Assembly: GCA_038883715.1 (NCBI GenBank)
Contig: JAVZLS010000001.1
Span: forward strand, 1 to 64,000
Length of the DNA stretch: 64,000 nt
Direction: 5' to 3'
Source: Candidatus Bathyarchaeia archaeon
GTDB taxonomy: Archaea; Thermoproteota; Bathyarchaeia; Bathyarchaeales; Bathycorpusculaceae
The translations under genes and the position numbers were made by a program. Positions 2,506 through 11,270 of the stretch are shown one piece after another; the stretch's first letter is position 1, and every line of letters begins with the position of its first letter. The notes under the pieces were generated by a model that saw only the letters and a program-made list of their open reading frames with translations, had not been told where the DNA came from and ran no database searches.

Positions 2506-2850
2506 TTAAACGAAACCCGAAAATATTTGCATGATGCCAGACCCAAAATAAGGCTCATAGGGCTCCGGTAGTATAGCCCGGTCAAGTATTCCGGCCTTTC
2601 GAGCCGGAGACGCGGGTTCAAATCCCGCCCGGAGCACTCCTCTTTTATCAGAAACTACGTTTCCGATACCTTCCTTTTGGGAAGGCGTTTGATTTTGTGC
2701 TATTTTCTTGAAGCCGTTTGTTAATGTTTGTATTCCAATTTTTAAGGCGTTTTCACAGTATTGTGAAACGTTTAAGCCTAATTCTTGAGCTTGTTTTAAA
2801 ATTGCGTCTTCAATTAGGATTGTTGTTCTAACCTTCACAAACATCACCAT
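2506..2850 (-). CDS. Integrase N-terminal fragment Int(N) with RHH/CcdA-like DNA-binding domain; runs antisense through tRNA-Glu in the integrated state
   Basis: KVRTTILIEDAILKQAQELGLNVSQYCENALK resembles RHH antitoxin-type domains; reads VLRAGFEPASPARK across att in the same frame as Int(C); start could be 2868, 2850 or 2844. Confidence 0.8.
   Translation of the reverse strand: MVMFVKVRTTILIEDAILKQAQELGLNVSQYCENALKIGIQTLTNGFKKIAQNQTPSQKEGIGNVVSDKRGVLRAGFEPASPARKAGILDRAILPEPYEPYFGSGIMQIFSGFV
2562..2636 (+). tRNA. tRNA-Glu(TTC); integration target
   Basis: Cloverleaf: acceptor GCTCCGG/CCGGAGC, anticodon arm CCGGC-CT-TTC-GA-GCCGG, T-arm GGTTCAAATCC. Confidence 0.97.
2596..2639 (+). repeat. 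attL, 44-bp direct repeat (3' half of tRNA-Glu)
   Basis: ctttcgagccggagacgcgggttcaaatcccgcccggagcactc identical to 7305-7348. Confidence 0.97.
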
Positions 2851-2880
2851 GCATATTTGTATATACATTCACGCTTTCAC

Positions 2881-3450
2881 TCATGCCTTTTCACCTTCCT
2901 CTAATTTCTTACTTATTTTTCTGAACAGTCCAAGAAATTTGGGAATCATCTTCTCACCCACTTTAATCCTATGCTTTTCCGCAGCATTTTCGTCCAACAA
3001 CAAATCCCATATGCTTATCTTTTTCAGTTCCTCTTCATATTCAGAGGTTAGAGAGTTTAACTCGCCTCGTAAATCGTCAGGCAACTCTAAAGCTGGAAGC
3101 TCAGTTTTTAGGAGAAGATATAATCGCCTAGTAGCTGATTCAATATTCTTGTTTATAAAATCCTCTTTAATCCGTTCAACTTCAGCCCTAATTTCTGAAA
3201 ATAAGTCTCTAATGGTTGTTTGTTTGGCATTTTTTGGAAACCATAAACCTTTTTCGCTATACACTTTTCCCATAAGCTCTAGAGTGTTAAGGTAGCGGTG
3301 AACAGTGGTTCTATAACTTGGCGGCTTGCCAAGCTCCTCTGCGATTCCAACGGCTGATATTCCCTTTGTGCTACTTTGTTGCACTATTTTGTAGATACTG
3401 TCTAACTTTTCCATGAATTTACGTTTTCTTTTATCCATTTTTGTAGCCAC
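2881..3450 (-). CDS. Winged helix-turn-helix protein (element regulator)
   Basis: GISAVGIAEELG...RTTVHRYLNTLELMGKVYSEKGLW wHTH pattern plus helical C-terminal domain. Confidence 0.75.
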   Translation of the reverse strand: MATKMDKRKRKFMEKLDSIYKIVQQSSTKGISAVGIAEELGKPPSYRTTVHRYLNTLELMGKVYSEKGLWFPKNAKQTTIRDLFSEIRAEVERIKEDFINKNIESATRRLYLLLKTELPALELPDDLRGELNSLTSEYEEELKKISIWDLLLDENAAEKHRIKVGEKMIPKFLGLFRKISKKLEEGEKA

Positions 3451-3502
3451 ACAAAAATAATTTAGAAGATGTAGCTACTTAAATAATTTGCGGTGACAAG
3501 AA

Positions 3503-3643
3503 ATGAACAAATCCATAATGTTAAGAATCCGAGTTGAACCGGAATTCAAACAATTACTTCAAAAGGCGGTAAATGAAGGCAAAGCCGAAAGTATGAGTGA
3601 ACTGATTAGAAAAGCGGTTCTGAAATTTTTGGAAATAGGCTAA
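3503..3643 (+). CDS. Ribbon-helix-helix (CopG/Arc-like) protein, 46 aa, below ORF-track cutoff
   Basis: Manual translation MNKSIMLRIRVEPEFKQLLQKAVNEGKAESMSELIRKAVLKFLEIG; alternating strand plus SMSELIRKAV helix. Confidence 0.85.
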   Translation: MNKSIMLRIRVEPEFKQLLQKAVNEGKAESMSELIRKAVLKFLEIG

Positions 3644-3658
3644 CGGAAGGGTCGTGGA

Positions 3659-3874
3659 ATGGCTAACCTAATTTTAACGGGAAACTGCAAATGCGGAAAA
3701 ACTTTCACCACAGCAGTTGAACTCCCAGAAACCATAACCATCAGAAGTGGAAATAGCGTTTACAACGCCAGATTGGGCGAACACTTAGTTGTCCAATGCC
3801 CAGCTTGCGGCAGGATCTTAAACCTGGGCAACGGGTCCAGGCGAAAAACTGAGGTGAAAAATCCTAATGTCTAA
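3659..3874 (+). CDS. Small zinc-ribbon protein
   Basis: CKCG and CPACG pairs; upstream GGAAGGG. Confidence 0.7.
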   Translation: MANLILTGNCKCGKTFTTAVELPETITIRSGNSVYNARLGEHLVVQCPACGRILNLGNGSRRKTEVKNPNV

Positions 3875-4145
3875 TTGCATTTTTAAAGTTAAGGAGAACC
3901 TTCAGACTCGTAGTGTGTTTTGTGAGAAGCTGCAGCAGTGGGTAAGCTCAAACTATTGCAATTTATGCCTTAACAGGGAAGCTTCCCCATCTACCAAAAC
4001 CACTAGTAATAATATCTATCTATCTAATAGATACGTACCTACCTACCTAAGCTCAAGCACCTACACCAAAACCAAAACACACCAAAACACTCCAAAACCA
4101 AACCTTCCTTCAAACAAAATTTTAATGTGTGATGTTTTGGCGTGA
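3867..4145 (+). CDS. Hypothetical Cys-rich protein; 3' half is low-complexity repeat DNA
   Basis: Overlaps both neighbours; C..C..CNLC in N-half. Confidence 0.5.
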   Translation: MSNCIFKVKENLQTRSVFCEKLQQWVSSNYCNLCLNREASPSTKTTSNNIYLSNRYVPTYLSSSTYTKTKTHQNTPKPNLPSNKILMCDVLA

Positions 4146-4609
4146 GCGAGTCTGAAAAGTCATGGGTTCACAAACTGTTTTTCAATGCCTATTTTGAAGA
4201 TGCTTTGGCAAAATATCGAGCTCAAACAGGGTTTGGCGAAAGCTATGCCATTCTCAATGCTCTAAACGAGTATTGGTTTCAAATAGGCGTAATGAGCAAG
4301 GAAGGATATGAGTACAACAGGAAACGTTATGGAGTCAGCTTAACAGAGAAGCTTAAAAAAGAGCTTGAAGCTGAACAGGAAGCTCAGAAAAAGGCGGATT
4401 TGCAGCAGCAGAAACCAATAGTTACTTCAAAAAGACCAGACTATTTCAATATGACTGATGACCAGCTTCTGGACCAATATTTGTTTGCTCAGAAAGTAAG
4501 TGATACTACGGCAATCCAGCTAATCCAATACGCTGCAATGAGGCGAGGATACAAATTCACACCAGACGGAAAAATAGTCAACATTAAAGGAGAAAAAGTG
4601 CTGGAATGA
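4142..4609 (+). CDS. Hypothetical element protein
   Basis: 155-aa ORF, GTGA/ATGA-type overlaps with neighbours. Confidence 0.7.
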   Translation: MSESEKSWVHKLFFNAYFEDALAKYRAQTGFGESYAILNALNEYWFQIGVMSKEGYEYNRKRYGVSLTEKLKKELEAEQEAQKKADLQQQKPIVTSKRPDYFNMTDDQLLDQYLFAQKVSDTTAIQLIQYAAMRRGYKFTPDGKIVNIKGEKVLE

Positions 4610-4716
4610 ATCAAGATAAAGAGCCTGTTGTTGCTTTGACGTCAAGGGCTAAATATGAGAGGCTATGTTTAAAATTGGCGAAAGAGATTTTGGAGCGTGG
4701 TAAAGCGAATGAATGA
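4606..4716 (+). CDS. Small hypothetical protein, 36 aa
   Basis: ATGA overlap with upstream stop; MNQDKEPVVALTSRAKYERLCLKLAKEILERGKANE. Confidence 0.5.
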   Translation: MNQDKEPVVALTSRAKYERLCLKLAKEILERGKANE

Positions 4717-4849
4717 GCTTTCCGTCATGTTTTTGGGCTTGGTTTCCGGGCTTTTGTTAGGCATGTGGCTTTATCCTAAGCTGATTCGCTTGTTTGATTG
4801 GTTGGAGAGGCGGTTTAGCGGTGGGAAAGGCGGAGAAGGGGAAGCGTAG
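4709..4849 (+). CDS. Small single-TM membrane protein, 46 aa
   Basis: Manual translation MNELSVMFLGLVSGLLLGMWLYPKLIRLFDWLERRFSGGKGGEGEA; overlaps previous ORF. Confidence 0.55.
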   Translation: MNELSVMFLGLVSGLLLGMWLYPKLIRLFDWLERRFSGGKGGEGEA

Positions 4850-4982
4850 GCGAAGCCTGGAGGCTCTGGTGGATAAGCAGCTTCTCATTCAGCTTTGTGT
4901 TGAAAACAAGATTGTTTCTAGAGCTTTTGAGCTTGAGCAGAGGCGTGTTAGGCGTAGGTTGCATAGTCAATACGTGGTTTAA
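4821..4982 (+). CDS. Small basic hypothetical protein
   Basis: Arg/Lys-rich ORF, GTG start after GGAGAGG. Confidence 0.45.
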   Translation: MGKAEKGKRRRSLEALVDKQLLIQLCVENKIVSRAFELEQRRVRRRLHSQYVV

Positions 4983-5422
4983 CTGCTAGTAGCCCTTATG
5001 TATATATACACTACAAGCCAATCCACCACATTAGGGCTATACCATTTAGTTTAAAGTTGTTATACTGTGTTGGACATTACACTCTAATGTCCAATAGATG
5101 AAAGCTTCACCGAAAAGAAGCCAGAAAAAAGCTCCGTTTGAGTCCTTATTAATTGATATAAATATATACGGCTTGATGGTTTCGGTTCTCTAGAGGGAAT
5201 GTTGGTGTTCAACACCAACATTAGTATCTCTGGTTCGATTTTTATGGGTTGTTTTTCTGAAATACGCTCGTTTTGAGCTCCTTTTGGAGCAAATGCTCCA
5301 CGAATAATTTTCTCTATATGCTTTTTATGGTATCCTGAGTATTCACTCAGCAGCTCCACAGCTCTTGCCTTTTAGTAAAGTTTTAATCCGATTGTGAGTT
5401 TCATTTAGTATGGGCTTGCGGT

Positions 5423-5992
5423 TTGAGCTTTTATGAGGAGCTAGCCCAAAGCTTCCCTGAAGACTATGTTGAGCCTTATGGCGCATGCCTCATTATTCCG
5501 CCTCAAGCCTTCAAGTCGGAATGGGCTGAAAAGTTGAAGGCTGAAAACTGTTCGGTTTTTCAGTCAGCCCTTAACAACCGCATGGTTTTTCTTGTCCGTA
5601 AAAAGAACAGCAGCAGTCAAGGCGTTTCTGAACCGCAAGCCCCACAGGCTTCTCAGGATCAGTCTAAGCCTCTTAGACCGTTTGAATGGAATGAAGAGAA
5701 CATTCGCCTTATTCAACGTTTGAGGGCTGAAGGGCTGGGTTTGCGGAGGATTTCTAAGCGTTTGGCTGAGTTGGGTTTTAAACCGCCTGCCCACATAACT
5801 ATCAGCAAAAAATTGAAGGCTTTGCAGAAACCAGCCACAACGGAAGCTGAAGCTGAGCCTCAAGCCTTAAACTGTGAAGATGATAGCCTTTTCAAAGAGC
5901 TTATGGAAGCCTCTCAAATGCTTTATCCAAGATTCAAAAAGGCTTGCGCCCTTCTGCTTAAAGAGGCAAGCCGCCTATTGATGGAAGCCTAA
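5423..5992 (+). CDS. Hypothetical protein with internal HTH domain
   Basis: IQRLRAEGLGLRRISKRLAELGFKPPAHITISKKL HTH-like segment. Confidence 0.7.
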   Translation: MSFYEELAQSFPEDYVEPYGACLIIPPQAFKSEWAEKLKAENCSVFQSALNNRMVFLVRKKNSSSQGVSEPQAPQASQDQSKPLRPFEWNEENIRLIQRLRAEGLGLRRISKRLAELGFKPPAHITISKKLKALQKPATTEAEAEPQALNCEDDSLFKELMEASQMLYPRFKKACALLLKEASRLLMEA

Positions 5993-6059
5993 TGTATCAT
6001 CACTGCAAAGCTTAAACTTTTCAACTTTCGTTTAAATTGTCTTGAGAGGGTTTAAACAT

Positions 6060-6302
6060 ATGCGGTTTGTTGTAACTGCGGTTGTAGGCATCGTCATAGC
6101 CTTCATGATAGGCTTGGTTGTCGTAGGCAACCTGATAAGCAGCGTCAACAGTAGCGGCTGGAGCGCCCAGGCAAACAGCACATGGGAAAGTTTGGTAGGC
6201 AACGTTTGGACAGCCTTCGGATTGCTAGTGATAATCCCGCTTGTCATCGGAGCAGTGGTTCTTCTCCGCATGTTCAGCGGAGGCAGAGGAGAAGGCTTCT
6301 AA
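6060..6302 (+). CDS. Putative spindle-shaped-virus-type major capsid protein (80 aa, two hydrophobic helices)
   Basis: Two long hydrophobic segments separated by polar loop with N-x-S/T sequons (NSS, NST); own TATA-like box and T-rich terminator. Confidence 0.7.
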   Translation: MRFVVTAVVGIVIAFMIGLVVVGNLISSVNSSGWSAQANSTWESLVGNVWTAFGLLVIIPLVIGAVVLLRMFSGGRGEGF

Positions 6303-6452
6303 AGGGCTTACAGCCCTCAAACTCCCCCCTCTTTTTCTGTTTTAGCCTAGACTCATTTAAGAAAGTCAATCGCAAGAATCCAATCCTTAAACTTCTCGTT
6401 TCTCCGTTTCTTACACAACTTCATTACAATATATAAAAGAAAAAGGAGAATG

Positions 6453-7348
6453 TTAAGCGATTCTGTTTTGGATTTCCTTTATCGCTTTAAACACTCTATC
6501 CTTTAAGTCTTCTATCAACTTTGGATTGAAGTAGTTGCTCATGAAAATGTTGCTTGATACTCTTCCCACGAGAAAGTCTATTTCCGGCTGCGACAAATAC
6601 CTAGTTAAAATAGTGTTATGTGCTTCTCTTATGTCGCTGAACCTAACCGGTAAACCTCTATCTTTCAGTCTTTTCTGAACCGCATACTTGCTTTTTAAAG
6701 GCACTTCACAACATATCTTTTCAACAAGCGTTTTGGGAACAAAGCTGATAAACGCCTTTTTAGTGCGTCTAATGAAAACCTCTTTAAACCGGTAATGCTC
6801 CAGGCATTCATTCGCCTCATTATAGTATTGGTTAAGTTTGCCTTCCCTATGCAGCTTGATTATCAAGTTATAACTTTGAACCGCCTCATCTAGTCTTAAA
6901 CCAGTTAAAGCTATGAAATCCATGAACACGCTTAAGTCTTGCCTAACAGCTTTCACTTGCTTAACCCATTGCCAAACCTCTTCCGGATTCTTAACCTTGA
7001 CAAGACGCTCAATCACTAAATCATCAACGCTTTTACCAGTCCAGTCTATCCCATAACATTTAAGCAGACGCTTATAATCCTCATAGACTCCCAAAAATTT
7101 CGCCAAATTACTTAAAGCACTAACAACATGATGACGTAAAGTCTTTCTCAAAATTGCCACTTCACTTAAATCCATCTGGAATAGGCAATGAGCATAACGC
7201 TTAGCATAACTAACAATATCCTTAGCAATCCTTTCCCTGTGACTCTGAAGCAGCCAAATTTCAAACGCTTTCCAGTCAATCGCCTCAAAATCGCCTTCTA
7301 TGCACTTTCGAGCCGGAGACGCGGGTTCAAATCCCGCCCGGAGCACTC
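6453..7348 (-). CDS. int: Integrase C-terminal catalytic fragment Int(C), SSV1-type tyrosine recombinase
   Basis: TGLRLDEA (R), TKKAF (K), DIR (R), FLVGR, NYF (Y); frame begins within att repeat. Confidence 0.9.
7305..7348 (+). repeat. attR, 44-bp direct repeat
   Basis: Identical to 2596-2639; followed by a T-run. Confidence 0.97.
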
Positions 7349-7433
7349 TTTTTTCATGAGTTGTTTGTGTTTGTTTGGTATTCAACAAGCTTTATATTGT
7401 GTATTGCGATATATGGAGGTTTGGTGCAAGCCC

Positions 7434-7781: not shown

Positions 7782-8186
7782 ATGAGGAGAATTCTTCGAA
7801 AACAAAAATCTGCATATGCGCTTAGTTTAGCTCTTTGCCTATTGGGAATTGCGGCCATTTTGGTGGTTGTCTGGAAGGCTTATCCAAAAATCTCTGGAAG
7901 CCCTAATCCCTTTTCGTCTTTCCTTTCCCTTCTCTGGACTGAGGAGCTTTCTCTCTTATCGTGGTTTTCTCTTAAACTCATATATCTTGTTGTTTTGGGG
8001 GATGTTCTGCTTATTGCTGGGATAGTTTTGTGGCTTTTAAGTAGGCAATGGTTTGTCGTGCCAGGCGCCACTGTTTGGTTTGAATGTCCCTTCTGCAAGA
8101 AAAAGTGGAGGTCAACTGGCGATAAGGCGCTGGTTCATTGTCCCTATTGTCGCCAACTGGTTCATCCAAGAATTGTCGAAAAATGA
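7782..8186 (+). CDS. Membrane protein with C-terminal zinc ribbon
   Basis: Two TM segments; CPFC and CPYC. Confidence 0.75.
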   Translation: MRRILRKQKSAYALSLALCLLGIAAILVVVWKAYPKISGSPNPFSSFLSLLWTEELSLLSWFSLKLIYLVVLGDVLLIAGIVLWLLSRQWFVVPGATVWFECPFCKKKWRSTGDKALVHCPYCRQLVHPRIVEK

Positions 8187-8561
8187 TGCTTACATCTTTT
8201 CCCTTTTAATCTCGAAAAGTACTGTTCCGCCGTCCGTGTAGGATTTTACAGGGTCTAGCATTGCATGACCCAGTTCCATCTTCCTCTTTTGCCAAGCCCA
8301 GGTTTTTGAAGCTTATTCCGCTGCTTAATGGCACAGGCAAGGAAAGCATGCAACCAAGGGCGTGAACGCATATTTTGCCTGTTCCCTTATTTCCTTGAGG
8401 ATTATGACTAGACGGTACTTTTCCTTAGATGTCATGACCATTTGCCTCGCTAGAACTGTGCATCAATTTTTGTTAATGTTTTATGGTTTAAAGCATTGGT
8501 TTGGCAAACACTTAAAAGCCTTGTTGGAAGGGATAATTGCTACAGTAAGAGGCGTGCAGCT

Positions 8562-9761
8562 ATGGGAAATCGTCCAGTGATTGTTGCGGCTGGTAGGACA
8601 AAGTTTGGGGAGCATTACGAGAAGCAGCCTGAACGCCTTATCGAGGAGGCTTGGCTCAGAGCTTCAGAGGAGGCTGGAATTGAACGTAAAGACTTAGAGG
8701 CATGTTACTTATCGGATTATTTTCTGCCGATAACAAATAAGCTCGGACTTGAAGAGGGTTTCCTATCGGAGTTGACCGAACTACATGTGCCTATGGATGT
8801 TGTGCGCTCTTTCAGTTCAGCCTTCTCCAACGCCTGTAACGCCATTCAAGCGGGAAAGTATGACATAGTTCTTGTAGGCGGCATAGAGAAAATGACAGAC
8901 CGCTGGGACAAAATCCGGGACGACCTAATGCTTCTTGAAGACCCTTGGAGTTACTATGCTGGATGCACACCTGAAGCCAACCATGAGCTTATGCTTAGGG
9001 CTTACATTAAGCGCTATGGAATAAGCGGCGAGAACCTTGAAAAGTTAGGCATCGCCTTAGCACAAATCTCTGTTAAAAATCATTTGAATGCCTTGAAAAA
9101 TGAGTACGCCCAGTTCCAGCGGAAAATAACCGTTGAGCAAGTGCTGGAAGCCAGAAGAAACGCGAGGCGCCCTTTGGGGCTTTATGATTTTGCACCTATA
9201 TCTGACGGCGCTTCCGCAGTGATTTTAGCCAGCGAGGAGGCAGCTAAAAAGTTGACTGACAAGCCAATTTATGTGTTTGGCTCCGCGTCAGCCACCGACT
9301 ACCTAACTTTTCCAGCCCGTGAAGACATGACTGGTTTTATTGCGACCCGCCTGGCTATAGAGAAAGCCCTTAAAACTGCTGGGATAAGCCTATGGAACAT
9401 ACAAGTTTTGGAGGTTTACGACCAATCAACCGTTATGGAAATGATTTCCCTTGAGGATTTAGGCTTCTGCGAGCGGGGGACAGCTTGGAAAATTATCTTT
9501 GAAAGCTGCAAAGACTATAAGGGCTACTACGAGGTGAATGGGAAGAAGCTTTTTGTTAATATGAATGGCGGCTTAAAGGCTGATGGAAACCCGCTGGGCG
9601 CCACTGGCGGAGCCCAAATTTACGAGGTTGTTAAACAGCTCAGGGGCGAAGCTGGTGAACGCCAAATAAAAACTGATGAAGCGTTAAAGTATGGCTGTGT
9701 GCTCGAGCTTGAGGGTTTCGGCACTAAAAGTTATGTTCACATTTTGGGAGGAGGCTTCTAA
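8562..9761 (+). CDS. Thiolase-fold protein (archaeal acetoacetyl-CoA thiolase-like) lacking canonical catalytic residues
   Basis: GRTKFGE, VGGIEKM, APISDGASA, GGLKADGNPLGATG fold motifs; no CASG nucleophile, HDCF->YDQS, GHP->GNP. Confidence 0.85.
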   Translation: MGNRPVIVAAGRTKFGEHYEKQPERLIEEAWLRASEEAGIERKDLEACYLSDYFLPITNKLGLEEGFLSELTELHVPMDVVRSFSSAFSNACNAIQAGKYDIVLVGGIEKMTDRWDKIRDDLMLLEDPWSYYAGCTPEANHELMLRAYIKRYGISGENLEKLGIALAQISVKNHLNALKNEYAQFQRKITVEQVLEARRNARRPLGLYDFAPISDGASAVILASEEAAKKLTDKPIYVFGSASATDYLTFPAREDMTGFIATRLAIEKALKTAGISLWNIQVLEVYDQSTVMEMISLEDLGFCERGTAWKIIFESCKDYKGYYEVNGKKLFVNMNGGLKADGNPLGATGGAQIYEVVKQLRGEAGERQIKTDEALKYGCVLELEGFGTKSYVHILGGGF

Positions 9762-11270
9762 ATGAGCAGCGAACCAATAGAAAGGCGTGTTTCCTATCTT
9801 GGCGATAGGCTTAGGGGTAGAAGATGCCAAATCTGTGGAAAAGAATATTTTGAAATAAGGGATTACTGCGGAAACTGCGGAAGAAAAAGCTTCGGAAAAA
9901 TGGAGGACATTGACTTCTTCTATGAAAAGGGCCGACTTGAGCTTTGCACCCTTGTCAATGAGCCTACAAACAAGTTTACAAAGCTTGGCACTTACATTTA
10001 CGGCATAGTTTCCTTCCACAACGGCAAGATAAGAGTTCCGGGAAGGCTCACAGACAAAATAATAAAGGATGACGAAACCATAGACTTTTCAACCCTTGAA
10101 GGTAGGGAGGTTGTCCCAAGGTTTAGGAGACGCTATTCTGTTGAGAAAAGCGAAATAATCCCAACAATCTCCTTGGCTTTCACCTTCGCCAATGAATATT
10201 ATCCACATCAAGAGTACCATGTAATAAAGCCATGCAAGGAGTATGATGCTCCAGGCATAGTTGGCTACGGCGTATACACGTCCAAGTTTAGAATTAGAGA
10301 GGGCGGCATAGAACGTTCCGTCCCCTTCATAGATGAGGATGCCATAACAGCGGCTGTTGAAGCTGGAAAACTCGCTCTAATTCACTCTGGGGTTGACAGC
10401 TCGCTTATTGGCAAAGTTTACGTTGGCTCAGAATCAAACCCCTATGCTGTTAAACCCATAGCCTCAAAGGTTGCCCAAGTCCTTAAGCTCGGCGAAGAAG
10501 ACGAGGATGTTCAAGGCGTTGACGCCGTTGACACAGAATTCGCCTGTAAAGCGGCTACAAGCATGTTTAAGGACGCTGCATCGCTTGTCAGTTATCCGAG
10601 GATGGGCTTTCCATACGCCATGGTTATTGGAACGGATAACTCGCAAGCGGCTCCAAGAGACTCTCCGGGTGGGGAGCTAGACTTCTTTGTTGGTTATGGT
10701 GGATGCGCCTACATATTTGGAAAAACCGACGTTATAGCGGAGCTTGAAGGATGGTACTCATGCACCTCTGATACGCCAGACTTTTGGCGCAGAGACGGCG
10801 AACCATACCCAATGCATGGCGGGCGGTTCACTGGTGACCCAGCCTACTTCAAACACATAAGAAAAGCTGCAAAGAAGCTTATGGAGAGGTTGGGCTTAAA
10901 GCCGGGCGACATAAACTATTTTGTGGCCCACCAGCCTAACGTCCAGTTTCCGGTCAGAATAGCCCGCGAACTAGGCTTCAAAGAAGAGCAATATGCGCCC
11001 TCGATTCAAGTGGCAAAGTTCGGCAACACATACTCGGGCTCTTCACCAGTAGGCCTGGCAGCAGTCCTCGACATAGCAAAGCCCAACGAACGTATACTAA
11101 TAGTAAGCTATGGCTCTGGAGCTGGAAGCGACGCCTACTCCTTCATAACAACAAGCCAAATTCTTGAAAAAAGGCAGCGTCAAAAACTCACTGTTAAGTA
11201 TCAGGCGGAAAACCCGTTTCTGGAATATGTGGACTACAACACGTATAGGCGACTTAAGGCCGGCATGTAG
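9762..11270 (+). CDS. DUF35 (Zn ribbon-OB) fused to hydroxymethylglutaryl-CoA synthase
   Basis: N-terminal CQICG/CGNCG plus OB; C-terminal GSESNPYAVKP, EFACKA, HQPN, GNTYSG. Confidence 0.9.
   Translation: MSSEPIERRVSYLGDRLRGRRCQICGKEYFEIRDYCGNCGRKSFGKMEDIDFFYEKGRLELCTLVNEPTNKFTKLGTYIYGIVSFHNGKIRVPGRLTDKIIKDDETIDFSTLEGREVVPRFRRRYSVEKSEIIPTISLAFTFANEYYPHQEYHVIKPCKEYDAPGIVGYGVYTSKFRIREGGIERSVPFIDEDAITAAVEAGKLALIHSGVDSSLIGKVYVGSESNPYAVKPIASKVAQVLKLGEEDEDVQGVDAVDTEFACKAATSMFKDAASLVSYPRMGFPYAMVIGTDNSQAAPRDSPGGELDFFVGYGGCAYIFGKTDVIAELEGWYSCTSDTPDFWRRDGEPYPMHGGRFTGDPAYFKHIRKAAKKLMERLGLKPGDINYFVAHQPNVQFPVRIARELGFKEEQYAPSIQVAKFGNTYSGSSPVGLAAVLDIAKPNERILIVSYGSGAGSDAYSFITTSQILEKRQRQKLTVKYQAENPFLEYVDYNTYRRLKAGM

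Follow-up and report, generated by a model that had tools for sequence, protein, structure and literature searches.

The closest published counterparts of the locus described here come from haloarchaea and nanohaloarchaea. The elements termed SRCEs are 2.7-9.0 kb long (median 3.6 kb), encode a major capsid protein (MCP) and/or an AAA+ ATPase together with plasmid replication proteins, and were proposed to be satellites (bioRxiv 10.1101/2025.02.15.638363). As described in the available part of that preprint, their replication modules are swappable, being either an RC Rep or one of several primase-helicase families, and the authors liken SRCEs to pSSVx, which carries a fusellovirus-type ATPase and no MCP, and also to capsid-forming PICIs of bacteria. 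For Bathyarchaeia, the accessible text on Huangdivirus presents this much larger provirus, with genes numbered up to 40 and encoding VP1-3 and an AAA+ ATPase, as the only described spindle virus, and states that the provirus screen of that study had a minimum length of 5 kb. Here, we describe EL1, a 4.75-kb insert at positions 2596-7348 of a 64,000-nt stretch of DNA from Candidatus Bathyarchaeia archaeon (the window; positions 1 to 64,000 of contig JAVZLS010000001.1, GenBank assembly GCA_038883715.1). Searches of the open-access full text of articles, supplements aside, found no description of small MCP-bearing integrated elements in Bathyarchaeia.

EL1 encodes a homologue of the MCPs found in spindle-shaped viruses and a whole integrase split between its two ends, and comparison of its genes with protein families recognised no replicase. 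We give roughly even odds to the reading that EL1 is an intact, reduced and mosaic satellite-like element, which encodes its own coat subunit and borrows its replication.

Capsid-protein homologue, borders and integrase

The MCP homologue is encoded at 6042-6302 on the forward strand and can be read as 86 amino acids (aa) from TTG 6042 or as 80 aa from ATG 6060; the latter is probably the start because relatives have 79-80 aa. HMMER, run in full over 1.84 billion representatives, returned 51 relatives at E <= 1e-3, and an alignment of 54 sequences showed a helix, a short loop and a second helix, with a majority consensus of W-S-x-x-A-N-x-T in the loop, which thus contains an N-x-T sequon. The best match of the 54-sequence profile among 177,635 PDB sequences was VP1 of SSV19, a fusellovirus MCP of solved structure (E 2.5e-4), with profile positions 1-75 aligned to residues 1-78 of 84; the second-best match was partial and had an E value of 0.068. 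With hhalign, the same profile matched ORF8 of Nitrosopumilaceae spindle-shaped virus NMM1 (95.3% probability, E 2e-8, 68 columns) and gave no match to the neighbouring ORF9. ORF8 has 88 aa, which fits the 89-aa MCP candidate that was reported for the Nitrosopumilaceae spindle viruses as related to SSV19 VP1 (PMC10866085), even though the available text of this paper does not name ORF8 as the MCP. A tblastn search of a phage collection yielded weak matches only, 4 of the 9 being to Nitrosopumilaceae spindle-shaped viruses. The AF2 model of the EL1 protein is a helical hairpin (helices 4-34 and 42-79, pLDDT 90.8), in keeping with MCPs of the SSV1 VP1/His1 VP21 type, in which a short turn joins two hydrophobic helices in about 70-100 aa.

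Homology of the small EL1 protein to spindle-virus MCPs is thus well supported at the level of sequence comparison, and we infer from it a capsid function in EL1. More distant members of the same family in two other Bathyarchaeia genomes, at G359:C172 (L111) and G183:C191 (L110), are located in one-directional clusters with many genes for membrane proteins and large secreted proteins (303-602 aa), and these clusters probably represent structural modules of larger, undescribed spindle-type viruses of Bathyarchaeia.

The borders of EL1 were identified by a direct repeat within the first 12 kb of the window, 2596-2651 and 7305-7360, with 93% identity over 56 nt. The first 44 nt of the two copies are identical (blastn, 100% over 44 nt), and the occurrence of a perfect 44-mer twice within 12 kb far exceeds what chance would explain. 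Repeat comparison and blastn place the 44-bp perfect cores of the attachment (att) sites at 2596-2639 (attL) and 7305-7348 (attR). The integration target is the host tRNA-Glu(TTC) gene at 2562-2637 on the forward strand (ARAGORN; Rfam tRNA, 65.7 bits), which was the only Rfam match on EL1. The 3' part of this gene forms attL, with the core duplicated at attR, and the tRNA remains whole because attL supplies its 3' part. The predicted excised circle is 4,709 bp, and the G+C content of EL1 is 40.7%, compared with 44.7-45.6% in the flanks. All open reading frames (ORFs) of EL1 are open and no decay was seen.

The integrase gene is present in two parts on the reverse strand, one at each end of EL1. 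The N-terminal part (2596-2868) has 91 codons and a ribbon-helix-helix (RHH)/CcdA-like start (CcdA-like, E 4.5e-4), and the C-terminal catalytic part (6453-7348) runs into attR. The C-terminal part matched the Pfam family PF16795, 'Archaeal phage integrase', at 29.0 bits, above the curated cut-off of 27 (E 1.2e-6), and the PHROG integrase phrog_5127 (E 6.8e-12). Both parts read the att core in one shared frame, and when they were joined by script across attP, the result was a single open frame, 374 aa long, whose only stop is the terminal one. By these features, the enzyme is an SSV-type integrase, with attP inside the gene, which integration splits and excision would re-form. Homologous integrase N-terminal parts adjoin other tRNAs in related elements.

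An earlier note on this DNA, drawn up from the sequence alone, had pointed to perfect 44-bp att repeats, an integrase that re-forms on excision, a capsid-like gene and a lack of decay. Each of these observations was borne out, the first by blastn, the second by the joined 374-aa frame, the third in the form of homology to spindle-virus capsid proteins (the SSV19 VP1 profile match and the hhalign match to NMM1 ORF8), and the fourth by the finding that every ORF is open.

A family of small integrated elements in Bathyarchaeia

The gene that precedes the MCP homologue encodes a 189-aa helix-turn-helix (HTH) protein (5423-5992, forward strand), which was found to be the hallmark of a family of elements. 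It has an N-terminal alpha/beta domain, an HTH and a C-terminal helical hairpin (AF2 model, pLDDT 72). Among 5.8 billion proteins only 9 hallmark proteins were found, and all 6 with a source name are from Bathyarchaeia; within Bathyarchaeia, the protein was detected in 5 of 401 sampled genomes. Comparison of the model with 48,161 chains by VIA-align gave the best Z scores, all below 8, to the small terminase of phage G20C (6.3, HTH part) and the DNA-binding domain of GcrA (5.9), a weak resemblance that bears on the HTH part and not on the N-terminal alpha/beta domain. A Foldseek search of the PDB with this model returned no match, and in the ESM Atlas the hallmark protein, like the 155-aa EL1 protein described below, scored 0.78-0.81 to unnamed viral clusters, which is the level of shuffled controls.

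Twelve loci with the hallmark gene were inspected: the window, G009:C35, three in G021, G012:C31, two in G381, the contigs L039-L041 from metagenome-assembled genomes (MAGs) and contig C7 of the same genome as the window (G000:C7). A weak match in G162, a relative in G454 and four hallmark proteins without context stand outside these counts. While the hallmark protein is found in all 12 loci, the MCP is encoded in 8, always directly after the hallmark gene, and is missing from L051, L039, L040 and L041. Replicase-type genes are present in two-thirds of the loci (8/12), one of them decayed. These genes are of several kinds: primase-helicases of 822 and 823 aa with PriCT_1 (L025 and L051), a 1183-aa protein with a weak DNA_pol_B_2 match, which we call PolB-like (L023 and L040), and P-loop ATPases of 461 aa (L024), 518 aa (L041) and at least 464 aa (L022) that cluster with the primase-helicases. 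The L022 ATPase aligns with the C-terminal part of the primase-helicase, and neither it nor the L024 ATPase has a Pfam family. Neither replicase cluster is represented in the remaining four loci, namely the window, both G381 elements and L039. Taken together, the gene content places EL1 in a Bathyarchaeia-specific family of 4-8 kb virus-plasmid hybrid elements.

One of the longer members lies in the same genome as EL1. This sibling on contig C7 (28958-36840; L051 8959-16841) is 7.9 kb long, has perfect 42-bp att sites in tRNA-Leu and an SSV-type integrase, and encodes a hallmark protein with 42% identity to that of EL1, a membrane protein (52%), a zinc ribbon (48%) and the 823-aa primase-helicase, with no MCP. 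A third small element on the same contig, at about 58600-64200, has neither hallmark nor MCP; its genes encode a 395-aa integrase of another type (zinc ribbon at the N terminus), a primase-helicase of 872 aa, an AbrB-like 86-aa ORF and a 241-aa HTH protein.

By gene content, EL1 is a mosaic of two modules. The right module, which consists of genes for a 50-aa membrane protein and a 62-aa basic protein, a control region, the hallmark gene and the MCP gene, also occurs in siblings with a gene for a primase-helicase, an ATPase or a PolB-like protein. By comparison, the left module is common to other replicase-less tiny integrated elements, and it comprises three genes on the forward strand. The first encodes a 71-aa zinc-ribbon protein (3659-3874) with weak Zn-ribbon matches, 48% identity to an 84-aa ORF of the C7 sibling and 73% identity to its counterpart in the metagenome locus L082. 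The second encodes a 92-aa Cys-rich protein with a low-complexity tail (3867-4145), whose homologues in metagenome loci (47-80% identity) are found directly upstream of homologues of the third. This third gene (4142-4609) encodes a conserved 155-aa protein that in its turn marks a second set of tiny integrated elements; the 23 homologues found are 48-86% identical to it and the protein is present in 32 metagenome loci, with no family match in Pfam, NCBIfam or PDB profile searches. On longer metagenome contigs, the pair of 92-aa and 155-aa genes occurs in tiny tRNA-integrated elements that have no MCP, hallmark or large gene. Elements with this pair that are bordered by tRNA-derived sequence were seen in L067, L068, L075 and L078, of which only L078, at about 4.9 kb, could be measured.

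The closest relative of EL1 is L082, a 2-kb metagenome contig. Its genes are arranged in the order MCP (77% identity), winged-HTH, RHH, zinc ribbon (73%), 96-aa gene (80%) and 155-aa gene (87%), with 85 nt and no integrase between the MCP and the regulator. This order corresponds to that of the predicted excised circle of EL1, and shows that an integrase-less lineage exists.

These relationships bear on the possibility that EL1 is simply an integrative cryptic plasmid with an SSV-type integrase, in which the two-helix protein is a virus-derived accessory that does not serve encapsidation and might instead function in superinfection exclusion or vesicle-mediated transfer. The family hallmark is indeed a DNA-binding protein and not the MCP, the presence of the MCP requires at least two changes on the hallmark-protein tree, the replication modules of siblings are of plasmid type (e.g., the PriCT_1 primase-helicase), the left module is shared with tiny elements that lack both MCP and hallmark, and primase-helicases are present in at least two further small integrated elements of the same genome. 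However, the MCP is 68-77% identical among the nearest elements and its gene always immediately follows the hallmark gene, an arrangement suggestive of selection for a role linked to the core of the element; the MCP family is also found in virus-like structural gene clusters; and analogous MCP-bearing small circles were interpreted as encapsidated in the available text of the SRCE preprint (bioRxiv 10.1101/2025.02.15.638363). We consider a plasmid with a non-capsid accessory gene an unlikely account of EL1.

Three family members are short, replicase-less and MCP-positive: EL1 (4.75 kb) and the two G381 elements of 4.08 and 5.33 kb, all with perfect 43-44-bp att repeats and whole integrases. 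The 4.08-kb element has the same tRNA-Glu att core as the window and the 5.33-kb element another att, and both encode the HTH protein and the MCP. The short form is read as a reduced, mosaic derivative, because longer members carry replicase-type genes and because one such gene looks like a replicase caught in decay: the primase-helicase of the MCP-bearing relative in G012 (C31 5095-7296; L052) has 5 in-frame stops (1 TGA, 3 TAG and 1 TAA).

A sister element of EL1 was found at the same site in G009, a genome of the same genus, with 95% identity in the C-terminal part of the integrase, 72% in the MCP and 64% in the hallmark protein. Next to attR, the window encodes a membrane protein of 134 aa (7782-8186) that has a double CxxC motif in its C-terminal part and is conserved at the same place in G009 (L022 5186-5590); therefore, the two insertions share one locus. 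The G009 assembly contains both the occupied tRNA-Glu site (C35) and an empty attB (C116; L028 1-200) with an identical right flank; in that population, the sister element must therefore be polymorphic or undergo excision.

Reduction raises the question of whether EL1 is an immobile deletion remnant, left behind when a 7-8 kb sibling decayed and its replicase was lost, and now carried passively by the chromosome. Longer siblings do occupy the same att in the same genus, and in G009:C35 the place of the small EL1 ORFs is taken by an ATPase of at least 464 aa; the stops in the G012 gene indicate that loss is under way in the family; and no excision product was seen in contigs. Against this, EL1 has perfect att cores, an integrase frame that stays intact across the junction and no broken ORF; the replicase region is replaced by a different conserved module whose 155-aa gene is the one with 23 homologues and 32 metagenome loci; two more short forms with perfect att sites exist in another genus; and for the sister element both an occupied and an empty site are present. 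That EL1 is a remnant of a larger provirus, an objection raised by the earlier note itself, was not upheld, since the att sites are perfect and the integrases whole in three short forms, and we regard a dead remnant as very improbable.

Control region, regulators and the source of replication

Between the small genes and the hallmark gene lies a noncoding control region of 440 nt (4983-5422), in which two palindromes surround a conserved A+T-rich core. The palindromes, at 5070-5094 and 5198-5222, are 88% and 96% self-complementary and bracket about 100 nt of A+T-rich sequence. Near 5113-5170, a 59-nt noncoding stretch is 85% identical to the C7 sibling, where it is also found upstream of the hallmark gene, and the core can be aligned in 8 elements. 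In L022, L053 and L054, the palindrome-bracketed segment is inverted relative to the hallmark gene. The region is a candidate promoter and/or origin, and the bracketed segment may serve as a control or origin element that is invertible or works in either orientation. A small ORF at 5098-5193 was considered as a gene and rejected, as its reading frame is not conserved in relatives.

The remaining genes are small. A predicted winged-HTH regulator of 189 aa (2881-3450, reverse strand) had matches to HTH_11 (E 0.0034) and HTH_IclR (E 0.0058), both below cut-offs, and to a PHROG transcriptional regulator (E 0.018). It is divergent from a 46-aa RHH protein (3503-3643, forward strand), which matched RHH_1 (E 9e-4, below the curated cut-off) and NCBIfam YlcI/YnfO (E 3e-5) and has homologues in 4 related loci. 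From the RHH gene onwards, a chain of small forward-strand ORFs spans 3503-4982; 15 nt separate the first two, and those from 3867 on overlap the next by 4-56 nt. Downstream of the 155-aa gene, this chain contains an unconfirmed 36-aa ORF (4606-4716) that overlaps its neighbours by 4 and 20 nt and has no homologue among related loci, the gene for the 50-aa single-pass membrane protein (4697-4849), with homologues in 3 related elements and 52% identity to its counterpart in the C7 sibling, and the gene for the 62-aa basic protein (4794-4982), with homologues in L022, L040 and L053. Beyond the insert, host genes beside EL1 (8496-11270) encode a thiolase-like protein (8496-9761) and a 502-aa protein with an N-terminal Cys4 zinc-ribbon motif followed by a synthase-like body, which was read from its translation alone as a fused DUF35/HMG-CoA-synthase.

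No Rep, primase, helicase, polymerase or AAA ATPase was recognised when the EL1 ORFs were compared with Pfam, PHROGs and NCBIfam, and PDB profile searches recognised no replicase in the hallmark and 155-aa proteins. The ORF list and Pfam also yielded no candidate adsorption or tail protein and no large structural protein, the only membrane protein other than the MCP homologue being that of 50 aa. If EL1 is a satellite-like element with borrowed replication, the re-formed SSV-type integrase would excise it as the 4,709-bp circle, and this circle would be copied by borrowed machinery, either the host replisome, recruited to the control region by DNA-binding proteins of EL1, or the primase-helicase of a co-resident sibling; the C7 sibling is a possible replication donor. 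The MCP would then wrap the circle into a small spindle- or rod-like particle, and a helper spindle virus would supply the parts for adsorption and egress.

A more far-reaching version, which we think improbable, is that EL1 and the C7 sibling are complementary halves of one divided virus-plasmid system, in which each supplies in trans what the other lacks. Mutual recognition would proceed through the common hallmark HTH protein and the conserved noncoding core, and the pair would form an integrated bipartite archaeal virus-like system. A search with the hallmark protein found two short forms and no sibling with both hallmark and replicase in G381; therefore, dependence on such a sibling cannot be obligate.

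Several results weigh against the satellite reading, and the G381 result is one of them. The MCP profile finds only the EL1 gene in the 1.33-Mb, 90.3%-complete genome, in which no larger spindle-type provirus was detected and Pfam His1_capsid has no match. No attB or attP joint is listed among the contigs of four sequencing runs, although contigs drop rare forms, and in the likely source run the unitig depth of EL1 was 216-258 compared with about 345 in the flanks (270 for the matching strain), which indicates no excess copy number. A k-mer screen found no CRISPR array in 41 contigs, and a DNA search of 151 related genomes returned no spacer-like match at full identity. The absence of the MCP from 4 of the 12 members shows that the coat gene is dispensable for the family. 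As for the MCP homologue itself, it scored 12.6 bits against Pfam His1_capsid (PF25665), below the cut-off of 27, and 3 of the 54 family members touch this model (best E 0.003) compared with 8 of 54 that touch unrelated membrane families; PF25665 covers one divergent branch of the MCP superfamily only. Foldseek comparison of the MCP model with the PDB and BFVD gave no match at E <= 0.001 (a Nitrosopumilus spindle-virus protein ranked 21st and 7xdi_A 36th), and helical hairpins carry little fold information. The evidence for the MCP is at the level of profiles only.

A 'skips 2463' joint in runs X2 and X3, which rests on a side of 23 nt, was set aside, and the matches of 30-32 nt at 97% in the search of related genomes fall in the conserved N-terminal part of the integrase. 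Runs X2-X4, in which the share is small, contained diverged relatives only.

The lack of a helper also invites the opposite reading, that EL1 is a minimal autonomous temperate virus whose whole genome is the 4.7-kb circle, replicated by the host replisome, like that of many replicase-less crenarchaeal viruses, and packaged, with no helper, in a particle of the MCP and the 50-aa membrane protein, perhaps with other small proteins. It would explain why the ORFs, integrase and att sites are intact, why the MCP is retained in three independent short forms and why no helper-type provirus was found in the EL1 genome or, with the hallmark query, in G381. A precedent in size exists in Aeropyrum pernix bacilliform virus 1, a double-stranded DNA (dsDNA) archaeal virus of about 5.3 kb with a small helical coat protein. 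In the available text of PMC10866085, this virus appears as a structural comparator. However, EL1 has no candidate adsorption or tail protein, its other membrane protein has only 50 aa, and large structural modules are present in the spindle viruses whose MCPs are related; members without the MCP are otherwise similar, which is more in line with a plasmid backbone to which a coat gene is optional than with a virus core; and three scans of the 2.9 million viral contigs of IMG/VR, with the MCP, its alignment and the hallmark alignment, confirmed no relative. An autonomous virus of this size is therefore judged to be rather unlikely.

The earlier note had seen in EL1 a new arrangement, an element with its own capsid subunit that takes replication and egress from a helper virus or the host. 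The divergent regulator pair (with winged-HTH and RHH_1 matches below curated cut-offs), the chain of overlapping small ORFs and the lack of any recognisable replication protein on which this rested were all found again. The homology of the small protein to spindle-virus capsid proteins held, and so did the absence of a recognisable replicase, whereas dependence on a helper gained no support, given the lack of a helper-type provirus in a 90%-complete genome and of an excised form among assembled contigs. The checks suggested by the note had mixed outcomes: contigs gave no junction and no excess depth for EL1 but did reveal the empty attB for the sister element in G009; relatives of 4-8 kb were found in Bathyarchaeia MAGs and none was confirmed in IMG/VR; and no CRISPR spacer matched. 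EL1 is also not alone, as it is one member of a family whose longer members have replicase-type genes, and small satellites of spindle viruses with a capsid gene were already in print, as the available text on SRCEs shows.

Comparison with known systems

EL1 resembles the spindle-shaped viruses in two respects. Its two-helix MCP with the loop sequon is homologous to those of Fuselloviridae, Nipumfusiviridae, Thaspiviridae and Huangdiviridae, and it shares with these viruses an SSV-type integrase with attP inside the gene and a tRNA target. The viruses differ by genomes that are several times larger and by large structural and tail genes, which EL1 does not have. Fuselloviridae genomes are about 15 kb or more and encode an AAA+ ATPase and tail or adsorption proteins beside the MCP. 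Those of Nipumfusivirus are 27-38 kb, according to the available text of PMC10866085. With 4.7 kb, no ATPase and no large structural protein, EL1 stands outside Fuselloviridae.

pSSVi and pSSVx, satellites of Saccharolobus fuselloviruses, are closer in size, at about 5-6 kb, and are spread with the help of spindle viruses. As pSSVi integrates through an SSV-type integrase, the pSSVi/pSSVx pair is mirrored by the integrative EL1 and the integrase-less L082. By contrast, both satellites use the coat of the helper, whereas EL1 encodes a coat subunit and no ATPase. Capsid-forming PICIs resemble the role inferred for EL1, since these integrated satellites encode the capsid protein themselves and rely on a helper for the other virion parts. 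They differ in having unrelated proteins (HK97-fold capsids and terminases), a bacterial host and a much larger size, so that the resemblance would be functional only.

SRCEs appear to be the closest published kind to EL1. Both are very small and carry a hydrophobic alpha-helical spindle-virus MCP on a plasmid-like backbone, read as supplying part of the virion module, and EL1 falls within the described class by its MCP and its predicted circle of 4,709 bp, in the range of 2.7-9.0 kb. As far as the available text of the preprint goes, five differences stand out. The SRCE sequences are free circles obtained by assembly of hypersaline metagenomes, while EL1 occupies a tRNA gene, having entered it by means of an SSV-type integrase. 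Plasmid replication proteins are described for SRCEs, whereas none is recognisable in EL1 and two of its relatives, even though they are present in 8 of the 12 members of the EL1 family. Many SRCEs carry an AAA+ ATPase and none was found in EL1. The EL1 host belongs to hot-spring Bathyarchaeia. Finally, the family has its own 189-aa hallmark, which was found only in Bathyarchaeia.

If the satellite reading is correct, capsid-encoding satellites of spindle viruses, so far known from halophiles, extend to thermophilic Bathyarchaeia, and a 4.7-kb element like EL1 would have been excluded by the 5-kb minimum given in the accessible text for the Huangdivirus provirus screen. The forms of 4.1-4.7 kb would be among the smallest dsDNA elements with their own coat gene. 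The family would moreover constitute a natural series, with replicase and coat, replicase only, coat only and a decaying replicase, which bears on the interconversion of viruses, satellites and plasmids. Compared with SRCEs as described in the available text, EL1 and its relatives would add two features to this kind of element, namely chromosomal integration by an SSV-type integrase and the existence of forms without a replicase.

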